Source: an uncultured bacterium
Lineage (GTDB): Bacteria > Verrucomicrobiota > Kiritimatiellia > RFP12 > UBA1067
Assembly: GCA_902770045.1 (NCBI GenBank)
Contig: CACXRO010000017.1
Location: forward strand, 9,369 to 73,368
Length of the DNA: 64,000 nt
Reading direction: 5' to 3'
Shown: piece by piece, positions 26,704-56,359 of the stretch
Layout of the letters: every line of letters starts with the position of its first letter
Numbering within the stretch: position 1 is the first letter of the stretch
The notes under the pieces: generated by a model
The model's input: the letters and a program-made list of their open reading frames with translations, nothing else
The model's database searches: none
What the model was told of the DNA's origin: nothing
Translations under genes and position numbers: made by a program

Positions 26704-27069
26704 ATGGCGCTGGCCATCATCTTTGACGGCGTCGGCTTCGGCGAGTGGTTTGTGCTGCTCGCCGTCGTTCTTGTCGTCGTGGGCCCGAAGCGCCTGCCGT
26801 CCGCCGCGCGGAAGTTCGGCCAGTACTACGCCAAGTTCCGCCGCGCCGCCGACAGCTTCAAGCGCCAGATCCTCGACATGGACACCGAGCTCGCCAACTC
26901 CGTGCGCGACGCCGCGCGCGAGGTCGAGAACGCCGCCAACGAAGTGACGAACGCCGCCGAGGACATGTTCCGCATCCCGGATCCCATTCCTCCAAGTCCC
27001 CCCAGCCCCGACAATCCTGTCAATCCTGTAAATCCCGTCGACAACACCGCGTCACCCGATGGCAATTGA
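26704..27069 (+). CDS. tatB: Twin-arginine translocase TatA/TatB subunit
   Basis: GFGEWFVLLAVVLVVVGPKRLP; lies upstream of tatC. Confidence 0.85.
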   Translation: MALAIIFDGVGFGEWFVLLAVVLVVVGPKRLPSAARKFGQYYAKFRRAADSFKRQILDMDTELANSVRDAAREVENAANEVTNAAEDMFRIPDPIPPSPPSPDNPVNPVNPVDNTASPDGN

Positions 27070-27817: not shown

Positions 27818-29127
27818 AGGGACGCGTCTCGGTAGCGCTCGGCTTCCTCGCGCTGATCTTCGTCGGCGCGGTCGTGCTGGCCGCCCCGTTCTCCCGCGCC
27901 GACGGCGCCTGGGGAGACCCGGTGGTCTCGCTCTTCACTGCCTGCTCGGCGGTCTGCGTGACTGGCCTTACCGTGGTGGACATCGCCGCGGAGTTCTCCC
28001 GCACCGGCCAGATCGTGCTGCTCGTCCTCGTCGAGGTCGGCTGCCTCGGCCTCATGACCTGCGGCACATTCCTCCTCATCGCGATTGGACGCCGCCTATC
28101 GCTCGCCCGCGAGTTCTCGCTCATGAACGCCTACGGCGTCGCCCAGATCCAGGGCCTCAAGGGGCTGATCTGCTGGACCGTCGGCTCGATGCTCGCCGTC
28201 GAGGGAATCGGCGCGGTGCTCCTCTACCTGCGCATCGGCGACGTCTACCGCAGCATCTTCTACTCCGCGATGAGCTTCTGCAACGCCGGCTTCAGCGTCG
28301 ACCCCGGCTCGATCGCCGTCTTCGCCGGCGACCCCTGGGTCGTCTTCATCCTCGCGGCGGAGACGATCCTCGGCGGCATCGGGTTCCTCGTGCTCTACAA
28401 CTTCTGCACCTGCTTCCTCGGCCGCCGGCGCGGCGCCCCGCGCGGCAAGCTTTCGCTCCACGCCCGCGTCGTCCTGCGCCTCACCGCCTACCTGCTCGTG
28501 CTCGCCTTCGCCTTCTTCCTCGTCGCGGAGTGGAACGGCGCGCTCGCCCCCTACCACGGCGCCCAGCGCTGGTGGGTGGCGTTCTACCAGGCCGTCACCC
28601 CGCGCACCTGCGGCTTCTGCATCATCCCCACCGAGTCGCTCCGGCCCATCACCCGCCTCGTCTACGAGGCGCTGATGTTCGTCGGCGGCGCGCCCGGCTC
28701 CGCCGCCGCCGGCATGAAGGTGACCACCTTCGCCGTGCTCGTCTACACCCTGCTCGCGATGTGCCGCGGCGAGCAGGAGACCACGCTCGACCACCGCATC
28801 GTCCCGGCCGAGATAGTGCGCGAGTCGATCGTCATCTTCATGGCCCTCGTCGGCTTCATCGTGCTCGTCACCGGCGCGCTCTTCATCACCGAGGACATGT
28901 CCGCCGACACCCCGGAGCGCCTCTTCTTCGAGGCCGTCTCCGCCGTCACCACCACCGGACTCTCCGTCGCCGACACCACCCCGAGCCTCTCATTCGCCGG
29001 ACGCTGCGTCATCATGGTCGCCATGTTCATAGGCCGTCTCGGCGCACTCTCGGTGGTGATGCTGATCGGCGACCGCGAGTCGAAGCGACACGTCCGCTTC
29101 CCCACCGGCGAACTGGTTGTGGGCTAA
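27814..29127 (+). CDS. trkH: TrkH/KtrB potassium uptake membrane protein
   Basis: SAVCVTGL, SFCNAGFS, PRTCGF, SAVTTTGLS pore loops. Confidence 0.9.
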   Translation: MKGRVSVALGFLALIFVGAVVLAAPFSRADGAWGDPVVSLFTACSAVCVTGLTVVDIAAEFSRTGQIVLLVLVEVGCLGLMTCGTFLLIAIGRRLSLAREFSLMNAYGVAQIQGLKGLICWTVGSMLAVEGIGAVLLYLRIGDVYRSIFYSAMSFCNAGFSVDPGSIAVFAGDPWVVFILAAETILGGIGFLVLYNFCTCFLGRRRGAPRGKLSLHARVVLRLTAYLLVLAFAFFLVAEWNGALAPYHGAQRWWVAFYQAVTPRTCGFCIIPTESLRPITRLVYEALMFVGGAPGSAAAGMKVTTFAVLVYTLLAMCRGEQETTLDHRIVPAEIVRESIVIFMALVGFIVLVTGALFITEDMSADTPERLFFEAVSAVTTTGLSVADTTPSLSFAGRCVIMVAMFIGRLGALSVVMLIGDRESKRHVRFPTGELVVG

Positions 29128-29906
29128 TTTGCCCCGATTACCGCAATCAGCGCAACTGCCGCGGTGTCGGTGCGGAGGATCCGCGGACCAAGGGAGAAGC
29201 GCCTGAAGCCGTGTGCTTCCAGGAGCTCGACCTCGTTGTCGGTCCAGCCGCCCTCGGGGCCGATGGCCAGGAGCGGACGTGGTTTGGTGCCGGGGTTCAC
29301 ACAGAGGCACAGAGGCACAGAGGTGTTGGGGGCTGAAGAGGGGTGGCTAGCGGGACGTGGTTTGTTAGGTGTGGCGCAGGGATGCGCCACGATTCGGTCG
29401 CTGTTGGGGAAGAGCGCGTCAAGCTCTTCGTCGAGGAAGCGGCGGAAGTTGCGGCGGACCAGCGGCTCGGGCAGGACGGTGGCGCCGCACTGCATCAACC
29501 CCTCGACGAGCAGCGGACGGTAGATCTCCTCCTTGAGCAGGGTGGCGCCCCAGAAGTCCTTCTCCACCTTGCGCGCGCCGACGAGCACGATGCGTCCGAC
29601 GCCGAGCGCGGCGAGCTGCGGCAGAAGCCGCTTCATCACCCGCGGGCGCGGCGGCGCGAGCACGAGGTCGATCCACGGCGCCGGCGCGGGCGTATCGTGG
29701 CAGACGCGCACGGAGACGCGCGGCGCCTCGCCGGGCGCGGAGACGGCGACGATTTCGGAGGTGCCGACGAGTCCGCCGACGACGCCGGTCTTGAGCGGCT
29801 GGCCGATTTCGCCGTGGAGGACTCCGAGGATGTGTTCGGCGCGCACGCCGCCGACGGTGGCGACGCCGTCGACAATCTCGTCAGGCTCGAAGAGGATCCG
29901 GTTCAT
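29124..29906 (-). CDS. rsmE: 16S rRNA m3U1498 methyltransferase
   Basis: IGPEGGW and LGPRILRTDTA SPOUT motifs. Contains a repeat-derived insert at about 29283-29390. Confidence 0.9.
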   Translation of the reverse strand: MNRILFEPDEIVDGVATVGGVRAEHILGVLHGEIGQPLKTGVVGGLVGTSEIVAVSAPGEAPRVSVRVCHDTPAPAPWIDLVLAPPRPRVMKRLLPQLAALGVGRIVLVGARKVEKDFWGATLLKEEIYRPLLVEGLMQCGATVLPEPLVRRNFRRFLDEELDALFPNSDRIVAHPCATPNKPRPASHPSSAPNTSVPLCLCVNPGTKPRPLLAIGPEGGWTDNEVELLEAHGFRRFSLGPRILRTDTAAVALIAVIGAN

Positions 29907-30691
29907 GCAAACGCCCTTTCTGCATTGGCGAAGGTCAACGCCGCGAAGTCGTCCGCCGCCATGCCGCGCCGCGCCGCGAGGAATTCGCAGGTGTGGCGCA
30001 CGAAGGCCGGCTCGTTCACCTTGCCGCGCAGCGGCACCGGCGCGAGAAACGGCGAGTCGGTCTCGATCAGGATGCGGTCGTCGGGCACGACCGCCGCGGC
30101 GGCGCGCACGTTGTCCGCCAGCCTGAAGGTGACGATGCCCGAGAAGGAAATGTAGAAGCCGAGGTCGAGGAACTCCTTCGCCGCCTCGGGCGTGCCGGTG
30201 TAGCAGTGGATCACGCCGCGGGACGGAACCTCGCGCAGCAGCGCGAGCGTGTCGTCGTCCGCCTCGCGGGTATGGATGATCACCGGCAGACTGCGCTTTG
30301 CCGCCTCCTCGAGCTGCGCGGCGAAGAGCCTGCGCTGCGCTTCGCGCGTCTCGGGCGAGTAGTGGTAGTCGAGTCCGATCTCGCCTATTGCTCGTGGGGG
30401 GTGTTCGGGATTCACACAGAGGCACAGAGAAACAGAGGAGTGTTTTTGAGATTGTGGATGGCCGGGGGAGTTGACCTGATCTCGATCAAAGCCAGTGGCG
30501 AAGCAGACCTTCGGCATGCCTTCGCCGGACGCGGCGACCTCCGCCGCCAGCTCCGCCGCGGCGTTGAGCGCCGGGCTCCCGCCGACCGCCATCACCGCCT
30601 CGACGCCCGCCGCGCGTGCGCGCGACAGGATGGCGGCGATCTCCACCGGGGACGCCGTCTCGAAATGGCAGTGGGTGTCGTAGAGCCTCAT
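29903..30691 (-). CDS. tatD: TatD-family hydrolase
   Basis: DTHCH, IGEIGLDYHY, IIHTREA, IHCYTG, IETDSPFLAP. Repeat-derived insert at about 30385-30475. Confidence 0.93.
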   Translation of the reverse strand: MRLYDTHCHFETASPVEIAAILSRARAAGVEAVMAVGGSPALNAAAELAAEVAASGEGMPKVCFATGFDRDQVNSPGHPQSQKHSSVSLCLCVNPEHPPRAIGEIGLDYHYSPETREAQRRLFAAQLEEAAKRSLPVIIHTREADDDTLALLREVPSRGVIHCYTGTPEAAKEFLDLGFYISFSGIVTFRLADNVRAAAAVVPDDRILIETDSPFLAPVPLRGKVNEPAFVRHTCEFLAARRGMAADDFAALTFANAERAFA

Positions 30692-32274
30692 CGCTCGAGG
30701 AATCTCCCGGCGTTGCGGCGCCCGGCTGCGCCCAGCGTGGCGACCGCGCCGTTGACGAGGACATGCCGCATCCCCTCGGCGAAGCGGTGCGGCTCGGTGT
30801 AGGTGGCGGGGGAGCGGAACTCCGACTCGCTCCAGACCGCGATGTCCGCGAAAGCGCCGCGCTCGATTGTCCCGCGCCCCCGGATCCCGAACCGCCGCGC
30901 CGGCACCGATGTCATGCGCGCTACCGCCGCCTCGCGCGTCACCCCGAGCGCCCGCAGCCGGCGGTAGAACTCCGGCATGGTGCCGTAGGCTCGCGGGTGC
31001 GGATGGTCGGCGCCGAGCGGACCCCACGGCGCGCGCAGCGACGCGTCCGAGCCGGGGACGATCCAGTCTCGCGAGAGGATCTTGTCGAGGTTCTCCTCGC
31101 TCATCCCGAAGAAGAACGCGCCGGTGCGGCACCGGTCAAGCTCGAGGATGCGGCAGATTAGTTCACCGGGGGAAATTGCCGAGGATTTGTTTTTTTGCCA
31201 CAAAGGACACAAAGGGTCGCAAAGTTCCGCAACCGTTTTGCCGCAGAGCGTCTTGGTCTCGGGATGCCAGGCGCCGCCGATCATCACCTGCGACCAGTCG
31301 CGCGGCGAGGCGTTCAGTTCCGCCACGATGCGCGCACGCGCCTCCGGGTCCGCGAGCCGCGCCATCTCCGCCGGAGCCGCGCCTTCCTGCGCCCAGTCCG
31401 GGAGCACGATGTCGAGGTCAGTCCCCGCGGCGCAGAACGGGTAGCGGTCGGAGCCGAGGAGGAGTCCGTCCGCGACGGCGCGGTCGATGCGCCCGAGGAC
31501 CGCGTCGATCTTGTGCCAGTTGCGCTCGCCGCTCGTCTTGAGATGCGAGATCTCCGCGCGGATGCCGGTCGCCCTGACGAGGTCGAGGACTTCGTCGATC
31601 GCCTCGAGAATCGCGTCGCCCTCGGAGCGCATGTGCGTCGCGTAGAAGCCTCCCTTCGCCGCCGCCGCCTTCGCGAGCGCGACGACCTCCTCGTTCGTCG
31701 AGTAGCGCCCGGGCTGGTAGATAAGCCCGGTGGTGAGCCCCCACGCGCCCGCGTCCAGCGATTCCTCCAGAAGCCGCTGCATCCGCTTGAGCTCGTCCGG
31801 CTCCGCAGGCCGCGCGGCATATCCCATCGCCGACGAGCGCAGCGTGTTGTGTCCCACGAACACGGCGGTGTTGATGGCGGGCTTGGCGGACTCCACCGCC
31901 GCGCGGTACTCGGCAAAGGACCGCCAGGTGAGCCGTTCGCCGAGGAGCGACGCCCAGTCGGAGGAGAGCCTCGCCTCGCCGTAGCGCGGCGCGGCGCTGC
32001 CGCCGCACTGTCCGTTGATCTCGGTGGTGACGCCCTGCGCAAGCTTAGAGGGCGCGTCGGGCTCGAGGACCAGGTACGCGTCCGAATGTGCGTGCGAGTC
32101 GATGAACCCTGGAGTGACCAGACACCCGCTCGCATCGACCACCTCGGCGCCGCCCTTGTTCCCCACGCCGCCGCGCACGACGTCGGCGATACGGTCGCCT
32201 TCAACTACCACATCGCCCGGGAAGGACTCCATCCCGGTGCCGTCGACTATCGTTCCGTTGGCTATGATGATCAT
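30688..32274 (-). CDS. N-acyl-D-amino-acid deacylase (D-aminoacylase, amidohydrolase 3)
   Basis: PGFIDSHAHSD, QGVTTEINGQCG, THMRSEG, SHLK, HPRAYGTMP. Confidence 0.9.
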   Translation of the reverse strand: MIIIANGTIVDGTGMESFPGDVVVEGDRIADVVRGGVGNKGGAEVVDASGCLVTPGFIDSHAHSDAYLVLEPDAPSKLAQGVTTEINGQCGGSAAPRYGEARLSSDWASLLGERLTWRSFAEYRAAVESAKPAINTAVFVGHNTLRSSAMGYAARPAEPDELKRMQRLLEESLDAGAWGLTTGLIYQPGRYSTNEEVVALAKAAAAKGGFYATHMRSEGDAILEAIDEVLDLVRATGIRAEISHLKTSGERNWHKIDAVLGRIDRAVADGLLLGSDRYPFCAAGTDLDIVLPDWAQEGAAPAEMARLADPEARARIVAELNASPRDWSQVMIGGAWHPETKTLCGKTVAELCDPLCPLWQKNKSSAISPGELICRILELDRCRTGAFFFGMSEENLDKILSRDWIVPGSDASLRAPWGPLGADHPHPRAYGTMPEFYRRLRALGVTREAAVARMTSVPARRFGIRGRGTIERGAFADIAVWSESEFRSPATYTEPHRFAEGMRHVLVNGAVATLGAAGRRNAGRFLER

Positions 32275-32520
32275 TTTCGTGGTTCGTGGTTTGAGATTTG
32301 GACAGGATTTACAGGATTAACAGGATTGGAGGCTGGGGTGTTGGCTCGGGCGGCGTCGATTTTCGCTATGAGCTCATTCGCCCACGCGACTGCGTCGTCA
32401 ACCGACGAGAGCACCAACGACGACATTCGCCATTGCCCGCGACAACCGCACGGGATCGCCGCTCCGGTCGATCTGGTTTATGGCCTTGATGAGGTTGACA
32501 CAGGTGTTCGGACGCTTCAT
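32271..32520 (-). pseudogene. Internally deleted AbiEii-like toxin remnant
   Basis: ATG 2 nt after the AbiEi stop gives MKRPNTCVNLIKAI...RAMANVVVG and stops after 40 codons. An adjacent frame gives VDDAVAWANELIAKIDAA, a C-terminus-like segment. Confidence 0.6.
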
Positions 32521-54543: not shown

Positions 54544-54597
54544 GTGCGCATTATACCATAATTTCCGGTCCAGTGGTTGAAGCCCGGTGCCTATTAA

Positions 54598-54870
54598 AGT
54601 TGAAAGGTTGAAAAGTTGAAAGGTTGAAAGGCCGCGGCAGATTGCGCGGCGGTTTTGGTTTAACACGCGGATTTGTTCGCGTCTAACGACGCTCACCTTT
54701 CGCGGCGGCGGAAATCTGCCGCGAAAGCCAACACGGCCCGCGGCAAAAATGGTATAATTCACGCGATGAACAACCGTGACAAGTCCGCGCTTGCGCTCGC
54801 CCTCGCCATCGTGGGCGGAATTGCGGCTGGCTTGCGCTACACCCCGCGCCCCGCGGCATATACAGTAAAA
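54598..54870 (+). repeat. Direct repeat S copy 1: TTGAAAGG tandems + 12-mer + palindrome + promoter + signal-peptide stub
   Basis: Aligns with 56071..56359. Contains the stub ORF 54766..54882 (MNNRDKSALALALAIVGGIAAG...). Confidence 0.9.
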
Positions 54871-56008: not shown

Positions 56009-56070
56009 TGACAAAAGGGTTGGACCCTTCTGTATAACGCCGGTTGAAAGGTTGGGCGGAGCCGGTTGAG

Positions 56071-56359
56071 AAGTTGAAAAGTTGAAAGGTTGAAAGGCCG
56101 CGGCAGTTTTGATTAACACGCGGATTTGTTCGCGTCTAACGACGCTCACCTTTCGCGGCGGCGGGAATCTGCCGCGAAGGTTAACACGGAGCGCGGCAAA
56201 AATGGTATAATTCACGCGATGAAACCCCATGCCAAGACCGCGCTTTCCCTCGCCCTCGCCATCGTGGGCGGAATTGCGGCTGGCATGCGCTGTGACGCGT
56301 CCGTGACGGTGGAAACCCCGACGCAGATCAACCCGCGCCCTGCGGCATATACAGTAAAA
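56071..56359 (+). repeat. Direct repeat S copy 2
   Basis: Same order of elements as 54598..54870; stub MKPHAKTALSLALAIVGGIAAG. Confidence 0.9.

Follow-up and report, generated by a model that had tools for sequence, protein, structure and literature searches.

The stretch of DNA analyzed here, 64,000 nucleotides (nts) that we call the window, spans C17:9369-73368 of a metagenome-assembled genome (MAG) from an uncultured cattle-gut bacterium of the Kiritimatiellia. The assembly comprises 2.27 Mb in 87 contigs with 64.7% GC and is 85% complete; the genome is labeled G000, and C4, C17, C42, C61 and similar labels denote its contigs. Our subject is a short repeat that stands in frame inside enzyme genes at a locus of the window where three minus-strand genes overlap or abut. 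The first gene, rsmE (29124..29906), encodes a protein of 260 amino acids (aa) belonging to the 16S rRNA m3U1498 methyltransferase family (PF04452, 3.6e-30), and its start overlaps the stop of the second (ATGA). The second gene, tatD (29903..30691), encodes a metal-dependent hydrolase of the TatD family with 262 aa (PF01026, 2.4e-65), and the third (30688..32274) encodes a D-aminoacylase-like amidohydrolase of 528 aa (PF07969, 6.7e-33). The invariant residues of RsmE are intact, GPEGG among them, and so are the invariant residues of catalytic type in TatD (H7, H9, E104, H140, H162 and D212).

A 36-nt module in loops of adjacent enzymes

The original prediction, made by reading the sequence, was that one repeat had been inserted in frame in both RsmE and TatD. 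The repeat described there, TTCACACAGAGGCACAGAG..ACAGAGG, is indeed present inside the two genes, as TTCACACAGAGGCACAGAGGCACAGAGG at about 29296-29323 in rsmE and as TTCACACAGAGGCACAGAGAAACAGAGG at about 30411-30438 in tatD. Both copies lie on the coding (minus) strand and have the same reading frame, and translation of the two genes confirmed the peptide SV(P/S)LCLCVNP, which reads ...TSVPLCLCVNPG... (SVPLCLCVNP) in RsmE and ...SVSLCLCVNPE... (SVSLCLCVNP) in TatD. When the 15-mer CACAGAGGCACAGAG was searched for with two or fewer mismatches, four matches were found in the window, at 29300, 29308, 30415 and 30423, compared with 0.06 expected.

The extra segments, which are missing from most orthologs as had been stated for canonical RsmE and TatD, were then delimited by alignment. 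In RsmE the segment covers 103 nt on the minus strand (29275..29377, residues ~177-211, ...CATPNKPRPASHPSSAPNTSVPLCLCVNPGTKPRP...) in the AHP..GPEGG loop, and in TatD it covers 78 nt on the same strand (30396..30473, ...NSPGHPQSQKHSSVSLCLCVNPEHPP...) between DRDQ and AIGEIGLD. Patches of lower GC, ~90-110 bp long, had been reported at these places, and the dip is present in both of them (0.52-0.62 vs 0.65-0.8 in the surroundings), whereas the unit that they share is only 36 nt long. Local alignment of the two segments gave a single match, ACNCCTCTGTNNCTCTGTGCCTCTGTGTGAAYCCCG, identical at 33 of its 36 nt. This module consists of three 8-nt units, (CTCTGTGN)3 on the coding strand, and a terminal TGAAYCCCG, a non-periodic tail carried by both copies. 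It reads (CTCTGTGC)x3 + TGAACCCCG in RsmE (29291..29326, minus strand) and CTCTGTTT CTCTGTGC CTCTGTG + TGAATCCCG in TatD (30406..30441, minus strand).

Over the rest of each patch, the similarity was at or below that of the shuffled controls, and no further copy was found in the genome. A larger shared unit of ~65 nt, consisting of a left part and the array, was considered and rejected, because the left parts scored 10-12 against a shuffle mean of 15 and had no other copy in the genome. Since only 36 nt are shared, each patch consists of unique or decayed sequence around a 36-nt module. In RsmE, two copies of the 12-nt direct repeat CAAACCACGTCC, read from the sequence at 29275..29286 and 29353..29364 (minus strand), bracket the CTCTGTG module together with ~30 nt of unique sequence, and the flanks of the module resemble decayed units of the CCACCYAA type. 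The pair may have arisen by duplication of a target or by the splitting of an older array of the CCACCYAA type into two halves.

The amidohydrolase gene carries a third in-frame insert (31163..31214, minus strand, ~52 nt, ...ELCDPLCPLWQKNKSSAI...), which was overlooked in the first reading of the sequence. It is built of CTTTGCG/CTTTGTG units (CTTTGYG), a sister family of the repeat in RsmE and TatD, and the loop from GKTVAE to PGE in which it lies has 17 residues here compared with 4-12 in most orthologs. None of the RsmE, TatD and amidohydrolase inserts folded better than its shuffled versions (z = +0.32, -0.55 and +0.47, respectively), and no Rfam family matched in 28900-32400 at E <= 1.

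Loop length varies among orthologs at all three insert sites. The AHP-to-GPEGG stretch of RsmE has 42 aa here compared with 20-25 aa in most of 79 orthologs, and the AlphaFold2 model, based on an alignment of 46 sequences (mean predicted local distance difference test, pLDDT, 87.8; predicted template modeling score, pTM, 0.84), gives the insert as coil (pLDDT 43-57), with the well-modeled strands 171-174 and 212-215 on either side. The TatD insert (residues ~74-100) was also modeled as coil (pLDDT 30-47), flanked by helix 70-73 and strand 101-108, both of them well modeled. Taken with the variation of loop length among orthologs, these low-confidence coil predictions indicate that the RsmE and TatD inserts occupy surface positions where the structure is permissive. 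The RsmE loop has acquired unrelated repeats independently in other lineages, namely an 80-nt perfect hairpin in L078, tandem mini-hairpins in L082 and L089, and heptamer or octamer arrays in L138, L084 and L096. Orthologs across the phylum do not carry homologous loops that lack the DNA repeats, because most of them have short native loops and the other lineages hold unrelated repeats. We consider it probable that the RsmE and TatD segments are solo, partly decayed copies of tandem arrays that lodged in frame in permissive loops.

Array families in the genome and their translation

The 36-nt module is dispersed, and it stands in frame in variable loops. Its array core was found at about 20-29 unlinked loci of the genome, and the genome-wide search for inserts of the LCLCV type, which had been proposed as a check, found the core at about 20 loci other than rsmE and tatD. 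Tandem arrays of period 8 numbered 94 in the raw count, compared with 2 in the shuffled genome. After overlaps were merged, there were 98, 78 and 48 arrays of period 7, 8 and 9 (total 224), compared with 2-4 per period in the shuffled genome. The unit families include GTTGAAAR, which is the commonest octamer family in the genome, CCACCYAA, CRCAGAGR, CCACGAA, AATCCTGTN, CACAAAGGA, TTTCTAGG and AATTCCAC. (CCACGAA)2 had 92 matches here and 273 in the relative G019, with 0-2 in the control, and the longest arrays reach 14 units.

Open, coding-like frames contain 38 of the arrays, and ~20 remain as clear repeat elements once ordinary GC-rich coding repeats are discounted, so that the expected addition of peptides to housekeeping proteins is seen, in frame, in about 20 clear cases in the genome. 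The peptides are specific to the unit families (PRTTNHE, PNHLTTQP, SVPLCLCV, NPVNPV, TKDTKD and FQPFNLST). Pfam matches confirm PrmA, a HisH-type amidotransferase, LeuS and a GH92 enzyme as hosts, and further hosts on C4 look like CarB, PurF and GltB by eye. The arrays within open reading frames (ORFs) are strongly clustered. About a dozen lie at C4:39.8-55.1 kb in a few adjacent biosynthetic genes, and the three inserts at 29.2-31.3 kb of the window lie within 2 kb in three adjacent genes.

The window holds further arrays outside these genes. (CCACGAA)2 at 32276-32289 and (AATCCTGTN)3 at 27012-27038 each occupy a short spacer, directly upstream of the amidohydrolase start and of an ORF starting at 27059, respectively. 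Direct (GTTGAAAR)4 arrays at 54596-54632 and 56064-56098 flank an ORF of 379 aa, and both of them head one repeated sequence of ~90 nt. Elsewhere in the genome, a full GTTGAAAR/CTTTCAAC hairpin in LeuS (G000 C23:20927-21024) is read in frame as VEKLKSCKVEKL...NSSTFQPFNLST.

Translation of in-gene copies was assessed from the variable base of the CCACCYAA family. In the eight arrays of this family that lie inside ORFs, Y was C at all seven positions where YAA is a codon of the host frame and T at 15 of the 16 other positions (Fisher P = 3e-5); arrays elsewhere had 22 C and 13 T. The stop-forming base is avoided exactly in the host frame, and therefore the in-gene copies of this sister family are translated. 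By our own reading, the single deviant unit of the LeuS hairpin, GTTGCAAA, falls where TGA would be in frame. Among 19 array candidates with coding-like sequence on both sides, five contain a stop. These five were examined as possible gene-breakers and rejected, because all of them lie in short spacers between tandem genes; no array interrupting a gene was found, with only the five stop-containing candidates of the 19 inspected individually. By extension from the sister family, the RsmE and TatD inserts are presumably translated as well.

The opposite explanation is that the segments are removed before the mature protein is formed, by excision of the intron, intein or RNase III type. It has a precedent in the intervening sequences (IVSs) of 23S rRNA, in which four-helix-bundle genes lie between inverted repeats and which are cut by RNase III (PMC4990558), and a four-helix-bundle gene (TIGR02436, 1e-26) with inverted (AATTGTGG)3/(CCACAATT)4 arrays is present in this genome at C61:8478-8953. 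The copies here, however, do not fold and have no Rfam match, segments of 36-103 nt are far too short for an intein, and a cut by RNase III would sever the mRNA. Avoidance of stops in the host frame is what selection on read-through predicts, and this argues against removal at the RNA level, as does the finding, described below, that allelic length differences are all multiples of three. We therefore regard excision as very improbable.

Turnover of the loop alleles in close relatives

Related loci are from MAGs titled Kiritimatiellae or Kiritimatiellia bacterium, from the gut of cattle, sheep, goat and yak. The nearest relatives are G019 (RUG10963), L068 (W3P31.013), L066 (RUG14537) and the metagenome contigs L146 and L147, which diverge from this genome by 5-18% at third codon positions; G019 has ~97% nt identity to it across the locus. 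The RsmE insert is common to this genome, G019, L068 and L146, and is identical in three of them (0 of 103 positions differ from G019 and L146). We claim no constraint at the DNA level for it, because the tract around it is nearly identical as well. In L066 the RsmE loop is an unrelated one of 35 nt, a difference of 63 nt or 21 codons. The amidohydrolase insert is common to this genome, G019, L066 and L147 and is identical in G019 and L066, whereas L068 has 22 nt with CCACGAA units at the site instead.

The TatD loop has a series of alleles. L146/P0022 has the native-type loop ALGEGELPPVPETPALAAW, and native-type loops are also found in L003-L020. Type B, in G019/P0020, is a heptamer hairpin, (TCGTGRY)4-loop-(ACGAAYC)4, with a folding energy of -23.1 kcal/mol (z = -4.15), and in type AB (L147/P0021) CTCTGTG units take the place of its left arm, 28 nt for 28 nt. 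Type A-short is found in L066 and P0004-P0019, the latter being proteins of 250 aa, and type A-long, which is 36 nt longer, in this genome, L068 and P0003. The additional 36 nt (12 codons) lie at 30434..30469 on the minus strand. Among distant members of the TatD clade, complete CACAGAG/CTCTGTG hairpins are read as KHRDTEAQR-loop-LCLCASVLK (P0027, P0030-33, P0041 and P0050), and heptamer arrays read as (APSTPHQ)n have two super-units in P0024 and three in P0023. All allelic length differences seen are multiples of three. As a separate observation on this family, the metagenome TatD relatives P0001 and P0002 (383 and 388 aa, on contigs of 1.3-2.2 kb) contain the C-terminal two-thirds of TatD twice in tandem, with EQLEEA..RRDLPVVIHTREA.. 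repeated, which could be a genuine partial duplication or could stem from the assembly.

Since the inserts differ among close relatives, at about 5-15% silent divergence, their turnover is recent. In L146 a divergent tract lies directly upstream of the TatD loop, and therefore homologous exchange between lineages moves alleles around. Dispersal at about 20-29 loci and recent turnover agree with the element family that was predicted, and the word active, which was applied to it, is to be taken as polymorphism only.

Several explanations other than dispersed copies can be judged from these alleles. Repeats that grew in place by replication slippage in tolerant loops, with their likeness due to convergence, would account for the real length polymorphism, such as two vs three super-units of (APSTPHQ)n, and for arrays of up to 14 units. 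Slippage does not account for the same unit and non-periodic tail in two genes, with 33 of 36 nt identical, and at 20 or more unlinked loci, or for unrelated unit families at one site in genomes that are ~97% identical across the locus, and we give it very little credence. Selection might also have favored the loops for a function of their own, for example metal or redox sensing through Cys-containing LCLC motifs, as might be thought from SV(P/S)LCLCVNP in the same frame in both proteins and from the identity of the RsmE insert in three genomes. That identity, however, lies within a tract of locally low divergence, the confidence of the structural models is low, and close relatives lack the loops, have them truncated or carry unrelated peptides in their stead. 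In addition, the TatD insert differs from that of L068 at 17 of 78 positions (22%) compared with 15% at third codon positions, that is, at or above the silent rate, which gives no sign of peptide constraint. A selected function for the loops is accordingly most unlikely. The same comparison does not sustain hypermutation of the TatD insert as a general claim, which was rejected at 22% vs 15%; only the 5′ 32 nt of the insert appear much more diverged, according to our own count from the alignment. Finally, the genome is a MAG of 87 contigs, and repeats may induce chimeric joins in such assemblies. The inserts are nevertheless found again in assemblies and samples that are independent of each other (RUG10963, W3P31.013, and ENA and Logan contigs), the clusters have up to 42 member sequences and the reading frames are intact, so that an assembly artefact is next to inconceivable as the source of the inserts.

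GxxExxY nuclease genes and comparison with known systems

The unit families of the inserts are physically associated with genes for GxxExxY proteins, which are nucleases of the PD-(D/E)XK type. The gene at C4:69364-69756 (TIGR04256, 2.2e-35; PF13366, 6.3e-35) is bracketed by (CGCAGAGR)3 at 69329-69353 and inverted (CTCTGCGY)3 at 69771-69795 and is followed by a gene-less mini-hairpin, (CACAGAGR)3/(CTCTGCGY)3, the whole region being C4:69329-69879. CACAGAG and CGCAGAG units are one transition apart and are mixed within single arrays. A second copy of the gene, at C42:10725-11060, has the arms (CGCAAAGR)3/(CTTTGCGA)3. The families of the insert units equal the arm families of these two genes, CTCTGYG/CRCAGAG for C4 and CTTTGCG for C42, the inverted arms of the latter being of the CTTTGYG family that makes up the amidohydrolase insert. 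GxxExxY genes were found in 36 of 41 relatives. Where the loci there could be tested, inverted arrays of three units (period 8-10) bracket the gene in 16 of 24 cases, and the units are specific to the lineage. The TIGR02436 gene at C61 has the same layout as the GxxExxY genes.

One site, directly 5′ of a macro-domain gene, shows different states of such a unit. A full GxxExxY gene with CGCAGAG arms is present in G000 and G006 (84% identical). In G014 (90%; L196/L203) and G032 (79%; L200), which belong to different families, the element has arms of the ACAGGATT type, (ACAGGATTR)3, and keeps only the first ~18 codons of the GxxExxY gene (MSIDELCYKVIGAAMSVH...); in G032 it lies between Fic-type and macro-domain genes, with the same flanks as the full element in G000. 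G013 (93%) has no element. The internally deleted form in G014 and G032 is an intermediate between the full and the gene-less forms, and the presence or absence at the site indicates that the unit is not fixed there.

Weak candidates for transposase genes are found apart from these arrays. PF01797 (Y1_Tnp) has three weak, partial matches in the genome (24-31 bits), and no CACAGAG arrays were found beside them, the flanks being other repeats or no repeats. The match at C25:~25.0-26.2 kb is flanked on both sides by ATATTGAAAAT-N-AGGTCWGACC hairpins, and that at C37:~21.9-22.7 kb follows a hairpin of period-11 (GAACCTTAATG) arrays and GGGGACTGTCCCC palindromes. These genes and their repeats look like a separate system in the same genome, similar to repetitive extragenic palindromic (REP) sequences and REP-associated tyrosine transposases (RAYTs).

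The observations can be put together in a model in which the complete form is two inverted arrays, either as a hairpin or bracketing a small GxxExxY (PF13366) nuclease gene, with internally deleted and gene-less forms existing alongside it. New copies may arise by a copy-in process that needs the cognate nuclease and host repair, and the loops would then be remodeled by nested insertion, arm replacement, deletion and homologous exchange between lineages. The inserts would be translated as unconstrained coil, and they would persist because they are stop-free, have a length that is a multiple of three and lie far from catalytic residues. Carried further, the model would make GxxExxY nucleases with lineage-specific 7-9-nt arms an undescribed class of very small mobile elements, occurring in full or internally deleted copies, as gene-less hairpins and as 36-nt solo arms, whose modules colonize the coding loops of core enzymes and then replace each other, and of whose module-by-module turnover the TatD allele series would be a rare natural record. 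We propose this class tentatively and think it on the whole unlikely to hold in this full form. GxxExxY-armed array elements as a class appear not to have been described in print; our literature search found nothing linking GxxExxY/PF13366 to such repeats and no published function for PF13366/TIGR04256.

Various points weigh against the model. Movement itself has not been seen: the TatD allele series and the macro-domain site add evidence of turnover at roughly species-level divergence, and mobilization by the nuclease is inferred. The alleles may largely be homologous imports from diverged lineages, as the recombination tract of L146 suggests. No clean pair of an empty and a filled site displays a duplicated target; a 12-nt direct repeat is seen at RsmE alone, and the sole close relative that is insert-free there (L066) carries an unrelated loop, so that it provides no test of CAAACCACGTCC as a target duplication. 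At TatD, the 36-nt indel has neither microhomology nor a direct repeat, and the loops with repeats stand in for the native loop at about the same length, which is not simple addition. The case for translation of the RsmE and TatD inserts comes from the sister family CCACCYAA. No cognate nuclease gene for the abundant CCACGAA, CCACCYAA and GTTGAAAR families was found in the 85%-complete assembly, and in G019, where ORF picking was poor, the single clear GxxExxY copy (L178) does not have CCACGAA-type arms matching the TatD hairpin. To our knowledge, a PD-(D/E)XK nuclease alone is not known to act as a transposase.

The main alternative is that a repeat-specific nuclease with a role at the host level recognizes the arrays as its sites, and that these spread through recombination or transformation instead of mobilizing themselves, the in-gene copies being neutral by-products. 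The published precedent is the Ssn nucleases of the GIY-YIG family, whose genes are framed by NTS/SRM repeats that the enzymes bind and cut, and which modulate natural transformation without mobilizing themselves (PMC11893778). The present system resembles it in that a small nuclease gene is framed on both sides by a dispersed, lineage-specific repeat, which by analogy the nuclease might recognize, and both the pairing of the arms with their gene and the imported tract at the TatD loop in L146 would fit. It differs in that the flanked gene is PF13366/TIGR04256, a PD-(D/E)XK and not a GIY-YIG nuclease, that Ssn repeats are hairpins and not tandem arrays, and that in-frame coding copies are no reported feature of Ssn (PMC11893778). 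Moreover, a role at the host level leaves unexplained why copies should have landed inside coding loops at about 20 sites, and the deleted derivative of arms plus remnant and the presence or absence of the gene-bearing unit look like decay of a mobile element. We regard this alternative, too, as unlikely, though as a serious one.

Whichever mechanism applies, the unit families are tied physically to a very common nuclease family, PF13366/TIGR04256, which gives a lead on possible binding or cutting of the arm arrays, and the TatD and RsmE allele series lend themselves to measuring how fast and in what ways inserts are gained, swapped and lost. The inserts inflate loops and give odd low-complexity peptides (SVPLCLCV, PNHLTTQP and PRTTNHE), which annotators and structure predictors should treat as repeat-derived.

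Compared with other dispersed repeats, the present system shares with REP sequences, their hairpin doublets (REPINs) and RAYTs a single-copy enzyme gene flanked by inverted copies of a short dispersed repeat, with hairpin doublets as non-autonomous forms (PMC3116915). However, the flanked enzyme here is a GxxExxY PD-(D/E)XK nuclease and not a Y1/HUH transposase, and REPINs are almost entirely extragenic (PMC3116915) whereas about 20 copies are translated here. The miniature inverted-repeat transposable elements known as MITEs are likewise short non-autonomous derivatives of a gene-bearing element (PMC10969869), for which G014 and G032 provide a deleted intermediate. Unlike MITEs, the present elements have no DDE transposase and no consistent target-site duplication, their arms are tandem arrays, and the 36-nt solo arm is smaller than typical MITEs. 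The solo copies in this genome have one arm only, and hairpin alleles are found in relatives. The 23S rRNA IVSs with an S23p ORF also have a small ORF between inverted repeats inside an essential gene, but they lie in rRNA helices and are excised by RNase III (PMC4990558), whereas the copies here lie in protein-coding loops, are gene-less and unfolded with no stem, and are apparently translated. Inteins and self-splicing introns differ from the inserts, which encode 17-35 aa and have no match in Rfam.

Selfish repeats that colonize housekeeping genes in frame are known above all from Rickettsia, whose palindromic elements (RPEs), as summarized from Ogata et al. 2000 in PMC10969869, are ~100-150 bp long, palindromic and encode a conserved peptide. 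The analogy drawn in the original prediction holds for the outcome: according to the same source, RPEs too are dispersed repeats in frame in unrelated housekeeping genes, translated at permissive positions, and their small copies encode no transposase. It does not extend to membership, because the repeats here are neither palindromic nor of RPE size and so are set apart from that family by description. Instead, they are 36 nt of 8-nt tandem units, many unit families coexist, complete forms bracket a PD-(D/E)XK nuclease gene, and the host phylum is Kiritimatiellia. The same outcome is thus reached in a free-living gut phylum with much smaller, non-palindromic modules of tandem arrays, which affect at least about 20 genes in a 2.3-Mb genome.

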